A DNA stretch of 63,998 nt, the filler included, from Porpidia crustulata (lineage: Eukaryota): assembly GCA_964255105.1 (NCBI GenBank). It is 12 parts of 12 records of this genome, joined end to end, with 100 filler letters (N's around TTAATTAATTAA, not from the genome) between each part and the next. Parts side by side here need not be neighbours in the genome. Positions count along the whole stretch, not along the records: positions 10,777 to 16,055 come from CAXUWE010001861.1; 11 more parts are not named here. One strand, 5' to 3'. The translations under genes were made by a program, and so were the position numbers. Shown in pieces: positions 5,290 through 42,209 of the stretch; the first letter of the stretch is position 1, and the number at the start of each line of letters is the position of its first letter. The notes under the pieces are model-generated. The model was not told the DNA's origin. It did not search any database and saw only the letters and a program-made list of their open reading frames with translations.

Positions 5290-5389
5290 NNNNNNNNNNN
5301 NNNNNNNNNNNNNNNNNNNNNNNNNNNNNNNNNTTAATTAATTAANNNNNNNNNNNNNNNNNNNNNNNNNNNNNNNNNNNNNNNNNNNN
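5290..5389. other. Artificial contig-joining linker; repeated at 10677, 16056, 21430, 26797, 32162, 37524, 42885, 48244, 53598 and 58950
   Basis: Identical 100-nt N44-TTAATTAATTAA-N44 with stop codons in all six frames. Intervening contig lengths fall monotonically from 5287 to 5252 nt. Confidence 0.98.
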
Positions 5390-10124: not shown

Positions 10125-11047
10125 TGATAAGTGATGAGTGTGACGTCTATGTCTCTAGATCACGGATCTCGAGGTTGGTTTCTGCAAATATGGCAAGGGC
10201 TTGGATTAGTCTCCTTATTTACTGTGTTTTTTCTAACCATGAAGATTGTTGATGGAATTCTAGGTTCGTATGTGAGTGACATGAGAAAGCTGGCCGTGGC
10301 GATATGGCGCATCTGCAAAGGACTGTGCTGAAAGAGAACGAAGTCTTGACTCCTCTGCCCGAAGCAATTATCCCCTCGTAATATAGCCATTCAACTCCAG
10401 ATATCCTTGTCGTTGAGAAATTCGTGAAGCACAAATGACACTCGACAGGTCCTTTGCGACTAAAAACCTAAGTCTTATCTTGATTGCCGCCAGAACTCCA
10501 TTTTGCATATTAAAAATATGTCACTTGAGGTTGAAAATATTCTTGGATTAATTGCAATTACGATAAATTTTGTATCGTCCTTTAGTATCATATTTTCTAA
10601 ATTTCAAGTTGAAAATTGAACATGTTTATCCTTTTAAGGATACCCCCCCCCTTTGCTTCTTTGTACAACTCCCCTTNNNNNNNNNNNNNNNNNNNNNNNN
10701 NNNNNNNNNNNNNNNNNNNNTTAATTAATTAANNNNNNNNNNNNNNNNNNNNNNNNNNNNNNNNNNNNNNNNNNNNATTTTATGCAGGACAGAAGGAACC
10801 CTATCCGCCTGGATGCGGCTGACCCTCGCTTTGTCTCGCGCTTTCGCTCGCGGCTGAGTCTGTCCACCTCTGATTGCTGATAATCTAAGCAATCTTGACC
10901 TGTGTGACCCGACACTCGCTGTTATATGTGACTTGGTCATCCTGTCGAAATGCACCACATTCTACCTTCAGCGTCTCTCTTGTTCAGGTGCCGAAAAAAT
11001 CCAGATCTATCTTGCCTCTGCAAGGGGCCATCGTGAAGAGCCCAGAT

Positions 11048-12818
11048 ATGTCGCTCTTACAGCCGGCTAGTCTTGACCTACATTTTGAGACTCCACCACA
11101 CCCTCGCTCTCCTAGGTCACAACTAGAAGAGCAATTCAAGAAAGCACGGATCACGTTCGATAAGACGATTGATGGACACTATCGTCACGGAAAGACGGGA
11201 TACAAAAGGGTGGGCGCCCTCTTCCTGACATGGGAAAAGGATGATCTGCAGTGCAAGAGAACAGAAGTATCTCTGTCCACTGGGTTGCCTGGATGACGAG
11301 AGGCTGACCATTCCAGGTTGATGAATTGCGCGAGCTGTTCGATAAGGACTTCAACTTCGAGACCGACTACTTTGAAATACCGGCTGAGCGATGGCAGACC
11401 AGCCTTCATCGGAAAATCTCGGATTTCATCTATCATTACGACAGTCGGGACTGTCTAGCAATCATCTATTACGGTGGCCATGGATATATAGGCGAGGAGA
11501 CAAAGTCGCTCAAGCTTTCAGCGTAAGTACCTCCACACTTACTAACAGCTTCAAAAACCTTGGGAGTTCCAGTCCACCTTCCCTCCCCTTTCCACTGACA
11601 GTACTCTACGTTTTGGTTTCGTACTAAGATTAAATCCGTGACAATTGCAGGAAATTCGAGCACGACGGAAAGAACCCAAATGGAGATGAGACCTTGTTTT
11701 TCAACGATATAACTACATGCCTTCGACTGCCGTCCTGCGATCAGATCATAATCGTCGATTGCTGTTTTGCTGCGACCGCCTTCGCCCGTGAACCCATTGG
11801 TAAACAAAAATTTGAACTCTTGGCAGCAGCTGGGCCACACAACAAGGTCCCGGCACCTGGGCAGCCAGGTTCTTTCACACACGCTCTACAAATTGTGCTA
11901 AGGAAGCTTCTACATACCAACCCAACAGGTTTTTGTACTTCTGCACTGTATCGCGAGCTTTTCTACTCTATACCGCAAGACATAAAAACAAAGCCCATGC
12001 TGTTTGACCAATCCCGTCATAGCTATGGCAAGATCTGGCTCCGTCCTCAAGAACAAATCTCCGGAAAGGCGCCTACGATCAAGAAGGAAGGCAGATACTT
12101 GAACCTTACACTTCAACTGAATGAAGAGCCCAACGACGTTGTCATGAACGACCTTGCCTTGACATTGCAATACCTTCCACACGTTGACCAAGTCCGATTT
12201 GTCGACTTGTATGCTCCGAGGCACCAAATTGATAGTTTTATGCGCTCGATCTCGATGGCACAAAAATTACGACCCCTGGTCAGAAAACTGCAGGCCAGAA
12301 GAGATATGCGAAAACTCCAACAAGAGATGGCCCAAAACAAACATGTAGCTCGGCGGTCAGCGAGCTTTCTAGGCCTACTTTTCAAGCCAATCTCGCATCC
12401 AATTTATGATTGGAGTAGTGCGCGTGGGCCAAGAGGACTGTCGCCCGCTCGACCTCGACAAAAGTCTTCCACCTGGCCATCAAGCGAAATGGAGCAGCCT
12501 CTGAAGACTAAGGAATTCTCCAATCGATTCTTCTCGTTGAATTATACATTCACCATACCAAACTACAAGGCTTTGATATTAAGAACTTGCAATTCTTTCA
12601 ACCGCTCAATGGGCTTTCTCTTGCGTTGGACAAAATTTCCCTTACCATTGACCATGACAGGATTTCTTCGACAACAAATAGGAACCAATAAGTCATCGGC
12701 TATGGGTGCATTGAGTATGTGGGAAGAAATATACCTTCAAGAAGACGTATGGCATGCAATCATGTGGATCGTGGTTTGGTATGTGATGGCCTACATCTGC
12801 GTATACAAGAACGACTGA
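11048..12818 (+). CDS. Caspase-like (clan CD/peptidase C14-like) domain protein with C-terminal hydrophobic helix; exons 11048-11266, 11317-11522, 11651-12818
   Basis: YKRVGALFLTWEKDDL, then LAIIYYGGHG and QIIIVDCCFA (His-Gly and Asp-Cys dyad motifs), FELLAAA, GSFTHAL. Introns splice in frame. Confidence 0.8.
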
Positions 12819-13668
12819 ATTAGAGATCTTATCGAATGGTCTTTAATCTTTTCATGACAAACTCTCACTCTGCATTCAAGGTTCCTGTTTGAGAATCCTT
12901 TACCCAGCAACAATTTTAGGAGGGCGGCCTGCCGAAGTGTCCAGGAGTTAGATACATGCCTACGTCGTCACTTCGTGGTGCAACGATTTAGTTCAAATTG
13001 GATATTCGATAGAGCCATGAAGAAATCAGGGTCATCATCTGAGCTACAAACTAGGTTCACCAGGTCCAGTCAGTGACGAAAATGCAAGACTAGATGCTGT
13101 CAACGCAGCTCGTAAGAATGGCAATCATGGTTTGCCACATGTTCAGGTTTGCATATAACATCCAGATATGTGCATATTTCGCGGAATTGCGGCTACCTAC
13201 AGCAGCCCCGCATTGGATTTTGGCTGTAACATCACAAGCGCAGAGTCATCAGTTGCCTTCTTTCGTGATGTTCTGCCTAAGAGCAAGGCAGTTCTCGCTT
13301 CCCAAACACCACGTACAATCGTCCTTATATAACGTCGTAGCCTTGCTGCTATCACACATCCATAGTTTGAACCGCGCTGCACACTTAGCAGGACCTTTTT
13401 ACAACAGATTTAGGCTTTGCCCACAATGGCCCAACAATCGACTGATGAGGTTTGTGCATCCTCGTCGCGCACACAGCAAATTATATGGACATCGACCTAA
13501 TCCGAAGTGTTTCAGGGCGTCCCGGATGGCACAGACAGCGTGGGGCGAAGTCCCCCAGCATTTAGATCGCATATTAATCCTACGATGCCGGGTTTAGCTG
13601 AGACAGTGAGTCTCTTGCTATCTAGCAGCAAGTCACGATGATAACGAACTGAGCGCCAGTTTCCCGAC

Positions 13669-13842
13669 ATGGGCTTCACAAAGGGCAAAAAGGTCTATGT
13701 CAACGGCCGGCGAGGTCCTGTAGGACCATGGGAGATAGTAGAAGTGCTCGGCAATGGGCGATACAAATTAAATGATGGGCAAAAGGTGGTGGACAAAGTA
13801 TTCAACGAGGCTGATCTAAGCACGAAGCCTCGCGTGGACTGA
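13669..13842 (+). CDS. 57-aa small beta-barrel (SH3/Tudor-like) protein; may have upstream micro-exons from about 13426
   Basis: Hand translation MGFTKGKKVYVNGRRGPVGPWEIVEVLGNGRYKLNDGQKVVDKVFNEADLSTKPRVD* shows the pattern F-x2-G-x2-VY...GPW-x-I-x2-V...G-x-Y-x-L...E-x-DL. Below the ORF-track length cutoff. Confidence 0.65.
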   Translation: MGFTKGKKVYVNGRRGPVGPWEIVEVLGNGRYKLNDGQKVVDKVFNEADLSTKPRVD

Positions 13843-14196
13843 GGCATTCAAGGCTACTTTCATTCATGATACACTAGCAGAATATCGTCGTCGATAATTC
13901 ATTTGTAAACGCTTGGCTCTGGACAATTATTCTTGAACTCGTATCACAACTGAATGCGGTATTCACATCGGTGGTTGTGAACCAACCATGGAGATGAAGT
14001 TGAGGGGCGTTTCTGTGTGCGCCCGGGAAAGGCACCCCATACAAAGCCCATTCACGCAAGGCTGAACGTGGCTGAGCAAGGCAGATTTGTACAATTTCTA
14101 GGACATAAACCTCCACATTACCCAGTGTGATTCCATAAGCCTCTTTGATGGTCAGAATAGCTCTTTCAATTCAAAATTTGTATATCATTTATTGCC

Positions 14197-15876
14197 ATGG
14201 GTGTCATGCCACCAGCCACACCACCCTCCACTGTTGTTTCGGCACAGTCAAGTCCGGTGTCACCGACTGGCGTTTTTGCGAATGGGTTCGAGTCTGATCT
14301 TGAGAAGGGCCAGTACAATGAGAAGAATGAGGAATCCAATAATGGTATAGACGTTTGGCGCATCATACCTCTCGATCCGCCGTTAACAGCCTTCGCAGTC
14401 GCCGAACCTCCAATTAAGATTCCGCAGAACAGTGTAGCTGGCTGGCACGGTTGGGTACAAAAATTTGCTCCATCAGCTCAGCTGCCGCATGATACATGGC
14501 GAAAAGAAGACGGACGGGAGAAACTTGTCCAACGAAGTACAGGTTCCGTCCTGACCCAAAGCAACTGTAGAGGTCTTAGACTGACCAAGCGACAGTTGAT
14601 GACCACCCGAAAGGATATCCCCAACTAGCAGCGCTTCTAAACAGCGACGAGAACTTTCTCATGTGCCGACGCTTTGGGTTTCTCCACTCAAGGGTTTTGC
14701 TCTACCGTCAGGACGAACTTTACCAGCTTGAAAAGAAGCTCCTCGCCCTGGATGAAGCCGATGCCGAGGAATCGCCATTGGTCCTACGTTCAAGGCAGGT
14801 CGATAATGAGCAAGATGAACAACAGATGCGAAAAAAATTGATTGAGAAAATTGATGGGAAACTCAAGGAATATGGTAAGGTTCACTGCAATTGACGATGA
14901 AAGAACTTCTTCGGCTAACATCTGCAGACGAGTTAGTACAAAGGATCAAAATATCTGTTTCAACTAAGGTTGCAACTACACGCAACTACAATAGCGTTTT
15001 CAACTGGGTGATGGGCCGTAAGCCTGTTTGCCGCGGAGAATCTGAGTTTATGAGGCACAGAGAGGATTTTATCGCTCTTGGCGACGAACAAGAGGGTGGT
15101 TGGTTTGACGCTATTGTTGAAGACGCACTTGGCTGTCTGCCGCGCACACTTGCGCAGGTACATTACTCTTCGTCATTTCACTACGGTAAAATAGATGTCT
15201 TCGGAAGAATTCTAACTCAGAAGACAGGCTCTATTCACTCATCCTGAGCAGCGGAAGAAAAGCGACGATTCTTACGTTCATCTATACAGCAAATACCGCA
15301 TCGATGTCGTAGTGAGGCTGACACTGACAATTATCGCTGTTGCTCTTTTAATGGTGCCCACCACAGTGCTCTTCCTGGTGCCCGAACATGGTACCCTTAA
15401 GATCGTTCTAATCATGCTCTTTACGCTGCTCTTCAGCGCGGCAATGAGTGTTTTCACAAAGGCGAAACGGCATGAGATGTTTGCGGCAACCGCGGCGTAA
15501 GTTCTCCCGATCTCTTTCCCGCATTTCCTTTCGTGAGCCTGACGTATCCCCAAGTGTCGTTGCGTTAATGCTTGTTCTTCCAATGCTGGCATTGGCCCTG
15601 TTCAATAGTGCGAGGACTTGATACTCCTGTCTTCCTCGATCATAATACTTGAAAGCATGCATCTTTTGAATGTCAGGCTCTTTGTTTGCACGAATCATAA
15701 CTCTGCGGCCACTACGGTCTCGCAAAAACTCTTTATCGAGACCGATTCCATTACCAAGACTTCCCAAAAAGATCACACGCTAGTCCTAATCCGGTAATTT
15801 TAGATACTGTGCTGTCTTAGTGATTTTCCTTGGCAACATCGCTCCTCAAGTAGCTGCTCCAGCTGGCCATTCGTGA
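14197..15876 (+). CDS. DUF6594-family membrane protein; exons 14197-14542, 14596-14874, 14928-15157, 15228-15496, 15804-15876
   Basis: VDDHPKGYPQLAALLNSDENFLMCRRFGFLHSRVLLYRQDEL signature. C-terminal hydrophobic helices end TKAKRHEMFAATAA/YCAVLVIFLGN. All four GT-AG introns keep frame. Confidence 0.85.
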
Positions 15877-18295
15877 CGAACGGGATGGCCGTCTCGAACG
15901 CCTCCTGTGCCTCACGCCCGAATGGCTGAAACGGTGTGGATGCGACCGACTCACGGGACCGGCCAATCGGAGGCGAACCTCCAAGAGAGCGTCAGCGAGC
16001 CCGTAGCTGAACCGTTTGCCGCCTGAGTGGCGGGTATGACGATGAGCTTGGAAGGNNNNNNNNNNNNNNNNNNNNNNNNNNNNNNNNNNNNNNNNNNNNT
16101 TAATTAATTAANNNNNNNNNNNNNNNNNNNNNNNNNNNNNNNNNNNNNNNNNNNNGGGGTAGAGGAGGCCGTTGTGGTACTGTGTATGGAGCCGGTATGA
16201 GCGGGGCATGGATGTTGAGGATGATGTCGATGGTGGAGGGTAAGAATTGGTGTAGTATGAAGACCTGGAGAGTTTTCTCGATTGAACGACTACGTAGCGG
16301 TCCATCTTCGGGTAGAAGTCATCGTGATGCTAGGGAGATCTCTGGTTGTAGTGTAATTGATGGCTGATTCGTCGCTTCCGAGATTCACTTCTGCATCGGT
16401 GGATGGATGGATCGCGAGGGGGTAAAGAGGTGGGTGGAGTGTAGAGACCGTGGTGTCGTGGTTGATGAGATTGTAGTTGATAGTATTGCCGGATTCTCCG
16501 TCCTTGATGAGGTTTTTATTTCGAGGGTTTCTGTGCCAGCGCCTGGGGAGTGTTTTAACATTTTTTCTGAAATGGGTATCACTGAAATTATGATATGGCT
16601 CGTTCCAGGCATCTCCTGAACAAAGAGCAATTTCTCCTTATGTACCATCTGTGGCATGTGGAATCAAAAATCGACGTTTACCTGGCCAGTCCGAGTCGAG
16701 CTATTGTGTTTAAACCGATTCGTTAAAATTTCGGATTGAGGATCAAATTTAATAATTTTTTTCAAGAGATCAAGGCAAGCGAGTCGCTGTATTTAATATT
16801 GGTCATATTATGATAGACTTGGATTTGACAAGTGAAATAGCTTGGGCCGTTTTGCAACTCCGTGATAGCAGTGAGACTCGTTAATCATTGCTGCAGACAG
16901 GATTCGGAGTGACAATGTTTGCGTATCTTTGTTCATAAGAGTGTACTCGAATTGGTATACCTCATCTACTTACCACGTTTTATAAATCCAAAGAGGACTG
17001 CCCTTAGGCACAAGAAATGACACGCTGGCGACTTTACATTGGCGCCAATATTTCACCCCGTTTGCGTCTCTTTTTGTCGGCCACGACATACGAAATGGAA
17101 AGTTGAGACTCTATGACGAATAGGATATTCGGTCAATGTACAATCAGAAACAGCTAGAACCTCGTCACTAGCTTTTCTTATCTTCAGAAGCTAGAAAATG
17201 ATCAAAACGAAGGTAACAGCCAAGGAAACTCCTACAGGCCGAAGAAAGCTGTTGCGACACTAGAAGATCTCATTGCAGACATCTTGTAGAATAGGCCCGG
17301 TTCAGTCTGGGTATCATGAGTCCCACGGCATCACCATATCTAGCATGTGATCAGTCCTTTTCATGCTGGTGCCAACCAAGTTGACCATCTCTCGTAAGAG
17401 AGCAGTCTTGGATAAGAGCCTTGAGGATGGGGAATAGGCTACAGCAAATAAGTATCCACGCTGGATTTTCCGGACTAGCCAGAGGAACAACAAGAAGTGG
17501 TCCATTCCTGCAGGCTTTCCTTTGAATAAGGAAATGGTAGAATAAGATGCAGAGCACAAAGGCCAAAGGCAGTATGAGTAGCAGTAAGAATAAATAATCT
17601 TCCGTATTGCAACAGATACAGGTTAAAACAATAGTACATGCTAGATCAAAGTTCACACCCACGGAAAGAATCCGAGTGGGCTCTGGATGTAGAGATTCCC
17701 TTGCTGACGATGGTGGTCTCGTGTTAGCGCAAATAGCTATTGCTTCTGCTTATTCCAGCGAATATATGCAAAGAATACCGGGGATCGACTTTGAGACTGT
17801 CATCCCTTCTATCCCAAAAGGAATCAAAAAAATATCATCGACGGGTATCTCGAATGGAGATCTGCGATATGGTCAAGGGATTGAGTCCGGAGCGTATCCT
17901 TTCTAATATGAGTTCTTCTGCTAAATATTTGATCGGCTTGCTCTGCCTGTATGGTAGCTAGCAAGAGCATCAATAGTGTCACCAGTATCACCAAGCATTG
18001 TTGGTACTTCTGCCTGTTTGGGAGCACCGCTGAATTGAACACGAAGAGGTAGATCAAGCGAAGCGTTGCCCTGCCAGCGGAATAAAGTAAACAACAACGC
18101 ATCCTTGTAACAATTGACGCGCATTTGAAACATCTTGAATTATCGCGAGAACATTTTACCTACCATACCTACGCAAATCATACTGTCTGTTCAACCGCGT
18201 GGCCAAGGTTCTGGATATGTGTGCTGCTCAATTAGCCTGGCTGCGTATCAATATTTCCCATGACTGCGCATTGAACTCAAAATAGCCAAACCGCC

Positions 18296-39231: not shown

Positions 39232-42209
39232 TCACCCGGGCCAAGTCTCCTGCTTACCCTCAACATGCGTCGTCGTCGGGAGATCGGAAGAACGCTTCTT
39301 CCGCCGCACAACGGCGCTGAATGCTTTGCTTAGTCGACGGGATGCAGGTCTGTCATGCATAAAGGTATCGTCTCGAGGTGTGTGAACGGGATCGACTTGA
39401 TCCTTCGCCGCAGGGACAGCTACGGTGTATAGCGGAAGGATGGCACCGAAAGCACACACGGCCACGACTACGCAGAGCGAGTATGGTACACCTCGGTGGT
39501 AAGCCACTGGGCTCATGATGCCAGGGACCACCGCACCGCCAGAGATGGCCGCTGTGAGAAACACTGATCCCATCTTGGTGAATGCTCCGAGTCCGCGGAG
39601 AGACATGGCGAAGATGATGGAAAAGATACCCGACTGAGGAAAAGTCTGTGAGCTTTATCTAGACGGCTACAACTCTACGTAGATGGCTCACCTCGAAGAG
39701 ATAAATAAGCATCATCATTGCTATCCCGGAATAGCCAGCAAGGTTCATCGCAAGCGTCGATGTCACTACTAAGCCTGTGTATAGGAATAATAGGATCCAC
39801 CTTGGCGCCACAATGAGGCCAGCGATTGCAGAAAGGAAACGGCCGACAGCGAAGACCGTGCGGCCAATGGCTTGGTAATAGAATGCGCTTACCTTGGAGC
39901 TATATAGTAGTCAGCATATGTCAACGTGGAAAGTTAGTAGGCAGCTTACTTCGGCTTCGTGGTAGCGATGTACTGGCGGAAGTTCACCGACATAGCTTCT
40001 TGGCCACCCACATAGCAGAATTGAGAGAACACTCCAAGAGCAAGTGTGATGTATACGATTGGTAGCCCAATCATCTTCCTTTGGTTTACGAAAGCCCGTT
40101 GTTGAGCCACTTCTTCCAGATCTTCATCTGAGGCTTCTGGTATGGGTAGATAATAGTAGATGAGCGCAAGCACCACGACAAACAGAGCAATTCCAAGATA
40201 AGTCCATTGGATGTTGATGAGTGATGGCGCGTCAAGAACATTCCTGAACAAGACTTTTTGAGCTAAAATAGGGGAGAGCACACTGCCAATCGCTTGTACT
40301 GCCTGCGACATGTTGAGGCGCACCTCGGCGTACTCTGGTGGTCCGCAAAGGGCGATGAATGGATTGCCGGCGACTTCGAGAGTGGCAACACCCAGGCCGA
40401 CAATGAAATTAGAGATGATGAATGCAGGAAACGAAGCAAGTACTGCCGAAGGCCAGAACACAAGAGTGCCACAACCGTAGATACAAAGTCCCGTCATAAA
40501 CGTGGCCTTGAAACCCCACTTTTTAAAAACGACTTGCCCAAATGTGAGGGGTGCAACGAGATATGCCCCAAAATAAGCCGAATGAAGGCCAATAGATTGT
40601 GCTGTGCTCATGTGAACGATTCGCTGGAACTGGGAATTGAGAACATCCAAGAGACCATAAGCGAAGCCCCAAAGAAAGAAGAGAATCGTTACAAGACACA
40701 ACGGACATATGGACTCTCGGTTGGTCATCTTCACCATACTTTTTTGGTTCTGTACGTTGAAATATTCCAATGCTGCCAAGCTTCCCTTGCGAGATTTCGT
40801 AGTATGTATACTATCAAAAGACTGAACGTTCTCGGCAGGCGCTTCTGTTTGAGTGCTCCGAAGAAAATCTAATGCGTTCACGGATTCGTCTTTAGGGTCG
40901 GATCCAGGGTTTGCCGCATGAGTGTGAGCGGTGTCAGGGGTGGTAAGAAAGTCCAGAGTTTGAGTGTCTCCCATGTGAGCGGTGTTAATATCACCATTGG
41001 AATAGATGGGGATATCTTGCGGGCCTGAGTCATTGGAAGGGACTAGGTCCAAGGCCGCTTCCACGCTCATGCCTCTATCATGACCTCGAGATCTTGGACG
41101 GTTCGCAGCGTTCGGTGACCCGAGACCAGAGTGAGTCCGACCCCGAAGTCTAGGTGGTGGAACGCTGGCCCTTTGCGTATTGCCAGGTCGGTAGTAATGT
41201 GATCCCGTCACATCACCAACGTGTTTGATACGACCCAACAGCGTCGGGAATATTTTCACAACCAACGGTTTAACACCAGGCACGCAGGCGCATATCATTC
41301 CTACATGAACCTCAACAGCCGACCACATAAACGACAGAGAGGCTATCCAGGAGAAGTCCCTGGTTGAGTCGACACTTGTTCCGGTATGTCTCTGCAGCTG
41401 AGCCAGGGATGCCGACTGGAGATATGCAATACGGACGACGTCAATGACAGCAACAAATGCCCCGAAACTGAAGGTCACGATCAGAATAAGCTTTTCGTTA
41501 CGTGGCAGCTTCATGCCGGTGAGGATAGGCATCGGGAGAAACAAAAGGGCAAGATCGGTGATGATATTGACAGGCGCAGACGATAGATACAAGGTCACAA
41601 TATCGATGCACTTTTCCGCAGGTGGCATGGGAAAGTCAAAAGTAGCTCCTATCGGACGGCACTGGAAGATGTTGAGCAGCGTCAAGGCCATGCCCGCGAC
41701 GTTGACAACGACGAGCGTGCATATTGTTGCCCATTTGAAAACTCTTTGATTCTTCGACAACGTAAGGTAGAACAGACATATGGACGTCTTCGTAGCCATC
41801 AATGCCGGGTTCTGCCTCTGTTAGCGGGTTCCTGCAGCGAAGGCATCGGGGACGGACATATAGAACGGAGAAGGCATATTCCGACTTCTTTAATGGATGC
41901 TCCCAGTCTAGCTTGACGTCTTCTTGGTGCCTCCCGAGTCCAAGCGAGGTTCCATAGCAGATGGACAAGGAGAAACCAAAAGCGATGAACTTTTGATATG
42001 TTAGCACCCGAATCTGCAGCGATTGCGGTTGAACTCACCCAAGCAACGAGAATAGCATAGTCATCTGCAGTCAGTCTCTTAACAATTCCAATGCGAGAAA
42101 TGAAGCGCAAGACTATGAAGACCGACGATGCGACCAGCAATGCTATGGTGACGGCGAGCACGACATGTCCTCGGTCCTCGAGCGGTGGCGGAAGATCCGC
42201 CATGCCCAC
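39232..42209 (-). CDS. Fusion of PTH11-like (fungal rhodopsin-domain) membrane region and FucP-type MFS sugar transporter, multi-exon
   Basis: N-half LRFISR..LT.DDY, GLGRH, TKTSICLFY, FQCRPI, NIITDL..LPMP, WSAVEVHVGMICACVP. C-half LVTILFFLWGFAYGLLDVLN, LEVAGNPFIALCGPPEYAE.RLN, FCYVG. Confidence 0.88.

Follow-up and report, generated by a model that had tools for sequence, protein, structure and literature searches.

A 63,998-base stretch of DNA from Porpidia crustulata, hereafter the window, consists of 12 unrelated contigs of ~5.3 kb joined artificially by linkers, such that genes separated by a linker are not genomic neighbours. One of these contigs (positions 10777-16055) wholly contains three intact genes, all on the (+) strand, which encode in order a caspase-like cysteine protease, a microprotein of 57 amino acids (aa) and a membrane protein of the DUF6594 family; the genomic context of the trio is that of this contig only. 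The protease stop codon is separated by 850 nucleotides (nt) from the open reading frame (ORF) of the microprotein, which is in turn followed after 354 nt by the start codon of the DUF6594 gene (Table 1). These genes constitute a real and unreported conserved gene module, the mechanism of which we can only infer. The gene models were read by eye using fungal splice signals, and the two spliced models were then verified by script, thereby bearing out an earlier sequence-only reading of the window in which three co-oriented, intact genes had been described within a single contig. Scanning this contig against Rfam identified nothing at E ≤ 0.1.

Table 1. Positions of the three genes and associated features in the window
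Feature	Position	Strand	Details
Probable divergent C14 (caspase-like) cysteine protease, 530 aa	exons 11048-11266, 11317-11522, 11651-12818	+	two GT-AG introns; no internal stop
His128 codon, in YYGGHG, presumed catalytic	11479..11481	+	invariant column H129 of 17-sequence alignment
Cys180 codon, second Cys of VDCCFA, presumed catalytic	11763..11765	+	invariant column C178, 17 sequences
C-terminal hydrophobic tail, aa 508-526, presumed tail anchor	12747..12803	+	Kyte-Doolittle window 1.89; 4 residues follow
57 aa SH3-like microprotein with GPW motif	13669..13842	+	relatives, dN/dS, structural model
Conserved non-coding block, CCCGGG core, GGCTGA twice with 4 nt spacer	14016..14092 (L001 ~10290-10370)	+	105-180 nt before DUF6594 ATG
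DUF6594 membrane protein, 396 aa	14197..15876; exons 14197-14536, 14596-14874, 14928-15157, 15228-15496, 15804-15876	+	four GT-AG introns
Exon 1, Pro/Ser-rich N-terminal extension, aa 1-113, presumably disordered	14197..14536	+	ends just before (I/V)DDHPxGYP domain start
Three predicted transmembrane helices, aa ~306-330, 337-360, 367-387	15294..15876	+	hydrophobic segments; split by intron 4 (15497-15803)
Initial ~145 nt of intron 4, as conserved as the exons	15497..15640 (L001 11725-11870)	+	alignment window against L001-L004
Linkers	5290-5389, 10677-10776, 16056-16155 and eight more sites		N44-TTAATTAATTAA-N44

A divergent caspase-like protease

The product of the first gene aligned with positions 11-531 of the 534 in a hidden Markov model (HMM) of its full-length relatives (E = 1.5e-206). 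Both of the motifs picked out in the sequence-only reading are present, YYGGHG at aa 124 and VDCCFA at aa 177, and they supply an invariant His followed by an invariant Cys in the order expected of C14 (PF00656) peptidases. His128 and Cys180 are presumed to be the catalytic positions; the first Cys of the DCC triplet is only nearly invariant in the alignment of 17 relatives. When searched with exon 2 of the window gene alone, the PF00656 profile scored 18.0 bits (E = 0.0025), under its cut-off of 21.4, and it was found in 12 of the 17 full-length relatives at E ≤ 0.01, with a best E value of 8.3e-08 and with P0012 scoring 22.5 bits against the same cut-off. The nearest language-model neighbours of one relative, P0017, were Peptidase_C14 clusters of the Atlas from Ascomycota (0.96-0.97), with the MALT paracaspase at 0.86. 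The protein is thus a probable member of C14, judged on profile and motif evidence, and a very divergent one.

At E ≤ 0.001, a search with the translation of exon 3 recovered 128 relatives, 120 of them listed. To judge by the names of these listed matches, the relatives come mostly from lichen-forming Lecanoromycetes (Teloschistaceae, Alectoria, Lasallia, Cladonia, Heterodermia and Puttea), along with one Dothideomycete. C-terminal to the protease domain is a conserved region of ~300 aa that belongs to no Pfam family. No repeat or NOD sensor domain (NLR, WD40, TPR or ANK) was found by Pfam on the window exons or on the 17 relatives, in which the matches besides PF00656 comprised DUF6594 on a merged Diplodia model, described below, and two single weak ones (DUF6066 and Raptor_N). 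The window protein terminates in a hydrophobic tail, a feature absent from the sequence-only reading, which is presumed to represent a tail anchor; it is kept in seven of the 17 aligned relatives and missing from the models of Alectoria, Heterodermia, Lasallia, Cladonia and Puttea. Of three sequencing runs compared with the contig, X1, probably the source, contains it in two pieces and X2 had no match. In X3, a 10.4 kb contig of another organism matched only two short conserved stretches of the gene (11159-11255 and 11454-11505), at < 90% identity, and represents a relative.

An SH3-like microprotein

Three proteins of 56-67 aa, at 73-81% identity, are close relatives of the 57 aa ORF, and searching 1.84 billion representatives with a profile yielded 28 matches at E ≤ 0.001. 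Most of the 22 matches examined are free-standing ORFs of 52-114 aa, having their own ATG and stop codon, and the pattern VYVxGxRGxxGP(W/F/Y)xIxxVLGNGxYKL is common to the relatives. Comparison of the window sequence with its counterparts at three metagenomic loci (L001, L003 and L004) gave a proportion of non-synonymous differences (pN) of 0.16 and of synonymous differences (pS) of 0.72-0.74, the latter being near saturation, and a ratio of the corresponding rates (dN/dS) of 0.06-0.08. The ORF is a protein-coding gene under strong purifying selection.

An AlphaFold2 model of the microprotein is all-beta with four strands, at a mean predicted local distance difference test score (pLDDT) of 87.2, in keeping with the beta-barrel ORF of the sequence-only reading. 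The best Foldseek matches were the C-terminal domains of the Rous sarcoma virus and HIV-1 integrases, with template modelling (TM) scores of 0.52-0.62 and weak E values of 0.011-0.1; similarly weak scores, over the same range of E values, were obtained for Tudor (PHF20, TM 0.73), PWWP, Agenet and Hfq barrels. An SH3-like barrel is therefore supported as the predicted fold, which does not single out a specific family. None of 23 microprotein members matched any Pfam family at E ≤ 0.05, the window ORF likewise matching none, and none of the 23 matched PF24626 (SH3_Tf2-1) at E ≤ 1; a search of PDB sequences with the microprotein profile returned one chance row only.

In the part of the literature on gypsy-type integrases drawn upon here, the GPY/F module of these enzymes is described as mediating multimerisation (PMC2836005). 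The microprotein resembles the C-terminal SH3-like domain of the Ty3/gypsy and Tf2 integrases in carrying a GP(W/F/Y) motif; unlike integrases, it is free-standing and lacks an integrase core. One clear case of a retroelement match was present among the 26 of the 28 profile matches that were read, all but P0227 and P0228: the polyprotein P0219 (E = 1.4e-05 library-wide), in which the matched stretch (333-370) overlaps the PF24626 domain (324-368). Descent of the microprotein from the integrase domain of a retroelement is a lead arising from these similarities, in which case this family may exemplify the recruitment of such a domain as a free cellular protein.

Two in-frame stop codons lie directly upstream of the microprotein ATG in the window. 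The 20 nt before this ATG (window 13648-13668; L001 9980-10000) are invariant, and in L001-L005 they are coding by virtue of an upstream ATG, giving MARQFPD-MGF as in P0123, with the two stops preceding in the window. A QFP(D/E) motif is also found at that place in longer microprotein relatives. Four relatives of 91-114 aa (P0206, P0207, P0211 and P0220) have a conserved N-terminal extension, GPNKIEWRSR..RP..LK. The 526 aa P0212, which matches no Pfam family, has zinc-finger-like motifs of cysteine and histidine and, at its C-terminus, a domain of the microprotein type; it is either a true fusion or a merged model.

A membrane protein of the DUF6594 family

The third gene product aligned with the whole of an HMM of its full-length relatives (positions 1-360 of 360, E = 1.1e-148). 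Exons 2, 3 and 4 matched PF20237 at 80.1, 34.5 and 70.8 bits respectively (cut-off 30), over positions 1-85, 90-154 and 162-231 of the 238 in the profile, and on this basis the predicted protein is clearly a member of DUF6594. An alternative donor for intron 1, at 14543, was rejected in favour of 14537, which alone yields the ..QR-IDDHP junction of the relatives.

The architecture described in the sequence-only reading, a disordered Pro/Ser-rich N-terminus followed by a helical region and C-terminal transmembrane helices, is upheld by the predicted features. Within the N-terminal extension, a motif of the type TPPSTAPTSP is kept in Lecanoromycetes and an EDGRxK..QR stretch can also be aligned. 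A model of a complete homologue (P0149), based on a 36-row alignment, has a mean pLDDT of 61.6; residues 1-144 fall below 50, beyond which a pLDDT of 70-90 is reached by a domain of helices and by three long helices at the terminus (306-334, 339-360 and 365-385), and the window protein likewise has three hydrophobic segments. The most conserved parts of DUF6594 are the start of the domain, (I/V)DDHPxGYPQLAAF, and the transmembrane part, in the helices of which small and charged residues are conserved; near-invariant alignment columns are found in this part, and a conserved KAKRHE loop lies between helices 2 and 3 of the window protein. No gasdermin was found by Pfam on the exons or among the fold matches of DUF6594, and the only hits of an Atlas structure search above a TM score of 0.5 were DUF6594 itself. 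The homologous DUF6594 model matched no known fold.

Two non-coding segments of the gene are conserved. The block upstream of the ATG is invariant between the window, L001, L003 and L004 despite near-saturated synonymous sites, and is probably a promoter or 5' untranslated region (UTR) element of the DUF6594 gene. Intron 4, with an identity of 0.77, is better conserved than introns 1-3 (0.60-0.67), and its initial ~145 nt are kept as well as exons in spite of the same near-saturation. Its donor creates an in-frame TAA, meaning that unspliced mRNA would encode a protein ending ..AATAA midway in helix 3, and most NCBI models of relatives stop at exactly this point. Regulated retention of intron 4 is possible; the conserved block had no Rfam match, and its consensus fold was without covariation among four sequences. 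We discounted an ORF running across intron 4 on the minus strand (15278-15592), since L001 does not keep its ATG and has no minus-strand ORF of ≥ 110 aa at that place.

Recurrence of the gene cluster

Most linkage outside the window was read from locus tag numbers, merged gene models and equal longest-contig sizes. P0006 (a relative of the protease, 60% identity), P0122 (of the microprotein, 81%) and P0125 (the closest to DUF6594, 90%) all have a longest contig of 16,636 nt, and since these sizes are equal we infer that all three genes lie on a second contig. In Heterodermia, the protease and DUF6594 genes have consecutive tags (Q9195_005499 and Q9195_005500), and in Alectoria fallacina they are two apart (ALECFALPRED_000370 and ALECFALPRED_000368 respectively). 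The Diplodia seriata gene SLS55_002412 is a single 827 aa model in which PF00656 is followed by PF20237, the order being as in the window; a Lasiodiplodia DUF6594 model begins where the Diplodia model reads through, and this apparent fusion is probably two adjacent genes that have been merged, which extends the adjacency to a different class, the Dothideomycetes. At least nine of 79 DUF6594 matches have a longest contig equal in size to that of a protease relative, among the matches listed; the shared sizes are 16636, 18001, 33033, 33880, 119857, 120590, 130472, 160830 and 4490236 nt, the last being chromosome-sized and so uninformative.

The microprotein appears to accompany these pairs. Its HMM matched the C-termini of protease models from Lasallia (P0049, E = 2e-23) and Heterodermia (P0076, E = 1.8e-18), and weakly the N-terminus of a Neofusicoccum DUF6594 model (P0158, E = 0.002). 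The position of these matches at the ends of models indicates that a microprotein-like ORF lies between the two genes there too, merged by annotators. The recurrence of linkage, the lack of which was to refute the sequence-only reading, is therefore seen as proximity of protease and DUF6594 in several Lecanoromycetes and Diplodia, with the microprotein domain beside them, and the order protease, microprotein, DUF6594 is a recurrent one.

A metagenome scan added direct evidence from DNA in the form of five loci (L001-L005), on contigs of 114-179 kb that are near-identical to each other and so represent approximately one lineage, in which the microprotein is 75% identical to that of the window. 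In each, an orthologue of the DUF6594 gene with the same five exons is located 245-261 nt 3' of the microprotein, and the protein encoded by exons 2 and 4 is 84-87% identical to that of the window. The neighbours in L001 are housekeeping genes, encoding a short-chain dehydrogenase, an FAD oxidoreductase, a sterol methyltransferase, an SLT11-type splicing factor and a transketolase-like E1 beta subunit. A sixth candidate, L006, was rejected as a chance pattern match of 15 residues that was not recovered by the microprotein HMM.

No literature naming DUF6594 or PF20237 was found in the library searched, although the supplements of neighbourhood surveys could list the cluster under another name. 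DUF6594 is an orphan family of many ascomycetes, and its link to a protease and an SH3-like protein offers a first testable handle on its function. The presence of the cluster in cultivable Dothideomycetes as well means that experiments can be independent of lichen fungi.

Comparison with gasdermin clusters

The most similar arrangements known are those of fungal gasdermins. In the portion of a survey of these proteins used here, ~80% of fungal gasdermin genes are reported to adjoin protease genes, 19% of which are of the CHAT caspase-like type, with the gasdermins activated through cleavage by the neighbouring protease (PMC8851545); the use of this association as background in the sequence-only reading was accurate to that extent. 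The locus resembles the het-Q1/het-Q2 and Q1-6/Q2L-6 (CHAT) clusters, as depicted in the same portion of that source, in that the gene for a protease, of clan-CD or another type, lies directly beside that for a membrane-directed protein in a group of two to three genes that is recurrent across fungi. However, the partner here is predicted to be all-helical with three transmembrane helices, without any match to gasdermins by Pfam or fold, the protease is C14-like rather than S8 or CHAT and has no repeat or NOD sensor, and a third, SH3-like gene is located in between. As the partner is not a gasdermin, the locus is not a member of these clusters, but by analogy it may work like a gasdermin/HET-Q2-like one.

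The individual components also depart from their nearest families. By contrast with the solved C14 caspases, the protease is highly divergent, and has in this lineage both the ~300 aa C-terminal region and the membrane tail. Relative to the DUF6594 family at large, this subfamily adds the conserved Pro/Ser-rich extension along with the linked microprotein and protease.

Functional interpretation

All three proteins look functional from their sequences, given the invariant His and Cys of the protease in 17 relatives, the low dN/dS of the microprotein and the conservation of the DUF6594 exons. The reading that we favour, tentatively and with more doubt than confidence, is that the trio forms a functional module on the cytosolic face of one membrane, in which the protease cuts DUF6594 and the SH3-like protein binds it. 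The divergent C14 protease, with its His/Cys pair intact, would be held on the membrane in this lineage by its C-terminal tail anchor, which would place its soluble part in the cytosol. The DUF6594 protein would span the membrane three times, with its disordered extension and helical domain on the same side as the protease. Loops rich in basic residues tend to remain on the cytosolic side of membranes, the positive-inside rule, and since basic residues are found before the first transmembrane helix and in the KAKRHE loop, the N-terminal domain of DUF6594 is likely to be cytosolic. The microprotein, as the constant partner of DUF6594, would bind it, plausibly at the conserved Pro-rich N-terminal motif, and the protease would cleave DUF6594 in or near the N-terminal extension. 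Such cleavage might alter the activity or oligomeric state of the highly conserved transmembrane part, the outcome being either damage to the membrane and death, or a switch in signalling or homeostasis. If the protease does act on DUF6594, then the principle of a protease encoded beside its membrane target would extend past gasdermins in fungi. A complex prediction for the microprotein and residues 1-268 of P0129, a DUF6594 homologue from another species, run with alignments unused, scored 0.00 and is evidence neither way.

Several observations weigh against this proposal. Most of the evidence for linkage outside the window is indirect. A PDB search with the profile of the protease family recovered no caspase or metacaspase at E ≤ 1, returning chance-level rows (E ~0.9), and because the profile reaches no solved caspase the C14 assignment rests on Pfam and the His/Cys dyad. 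The best Foldseek match to the DUF6594 model had an E value of 1.5, with no pore-former or solved fold among the results, and a VIA search with the same model found generic helical hairpins only, at a best Z of 7.7. No P1 residue at the boundary of the extension and domain is conserved across classes in the alignment, the Lecanoromycetes having ..QR-IDDHP and the Botryosphaeriales ..ED-IDYHP or ..QC-IDYHP. Finally, neither tblastn nor a six-frame search with the family HMM found a protease-family ORF in L001-L005, over 10 kb of upstream sequence (5 kb for L003) and 8 kb of downstream sequence, and the survival of the pair without a nearby protease indicates that the protease is not obligatory in cis. 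As judged from these sequences, the tighter pair is that of the microprotein and DUF6594, to which the protease is a frequent, dispensable neighbour.

One alternative, which we consider rather unlikely, is that DUF6594 and its SH3-like partner serve at the membrane as a receptor or anchor by which the protease is recruited or regulated, with some other substrate being cut, for instance a latent regulator, such that DUF6594 is not itself an effector. A role as a tether would fit those protease models without a tail anchor, from Heterodermia and Lasallia, that run into the SH3-like domain, and the conserved C-terminal region of the protease could dock partners; the strong conservation of all three genes, and the housekeeping surroundings in L001, are as might be expected of a signalling or homeostatic device. 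Nevertheless, the cluster holds no candidate for a third substrate, the conservation of the DUF6594 transmembrane part above all others exceeds the needs of a plain anchor, and the pair survives in L001-L005 without a nearby protease.

This last observation can also be read as meaning that the functional unit is the microprotein and DUF6594 only, the protease being a frequent syntenic or co-regulated neighbour without a direct biochemical link, as L001-L005 retain both the closely spaced pair and the conserved intergenic block. The divergence between the window and the 16,636 nt contig is in keeping with this, the much lower identity of the protease than of DUF6594 and the microprotein suggesting that it evolves under different constraints. 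Against this, the order of protease then DUF6594 is found in both the Lecanoromycetes and Diplodia, a long persistence for chance synteny, and there are the nine coincidences of longest-contig size among the protease matches listed; independence of the protease likewise seems unlikely.

The sequence-only reading had suggested that DUF6594 could be a non-gasdermin membrane effector released by cleavage, with the microprotein as adaptor or inhibitor, in a module for cell death or allorecognition; taken strictly, cleaved DUF6594 would permeabilise membranes as an executioner. The architecture parallels that of the gasdermin/protease clusters as far as the portions of the sources drawn upon describe it, with a clan-CD-type protease and a membrane-active-looking partner with a removable extension in a group of two to three genes (PMC8851545, PMC12881547), and the DUF6594 transmembrane helices keep small and charged residues. 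Yet no signal of polymorphism or presence/absence typical of het loci was seen, purifying selection is strong, the neighbouring genes in the L001-L005 loci, as detailed for L001, are of housekeeping types, Pfam found no NLR, WD40, TPR or ANK sensor on the protease, and DUF6594 has no fold match to any pore-former. Allorecognition is thus a poor fit, and this strict reading appears improbable. It would be comparably bold to suppose that DUF6594 proteins are a new class of non-gasdermin membrane executioners or gated membrane devices in Ascomycota, licensed by a membrane-tethered C14 protease that removes the extension, with a domesticated retroelement-integrase SH3 (GPY/F) microprotein serving the Pro-rich N-terminus as adaptor or safety catch, and we regard this combination as improbable too.

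Least probable of all is that the 57 aa ORF is not an independent gene, being instead an exon of the protease or of DUF6594, or else an upstream ORF carried by the DUF6594 transcript. In favour of this, it lies only 354 nt (245-261 nt in L001-L005) before the DUF6594 ATG and was merged by annotators into P0049, P0076 and perhaps P0158. Against it, the usual form among the 22 relatives is a free-standing ORF having a start and a stop codon of its own, the ATG in the window follows two in-frame stops and lies 850 nt beyond the protease stop, the fold is confidently predicted to be autonomous, and the conserved block before DUF6594 resembles a separate promoter or 5' UTR element.

Other parts of the window

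The remaining pieces of the window encode ordinary fungal proteins, among them an SNF2/RING helicase, a protein kinase, CLN3, Rxt3, a Kelch protein, a bZIP factor, PhoD and Nipped-B. A single 623 aa frame at 39946-41820 on the (-) strand includes both a fungal rhodopsin-domain part (PF20684) and an MFS transporter part (PF07690), and may represent two genes or read-through of an intron.

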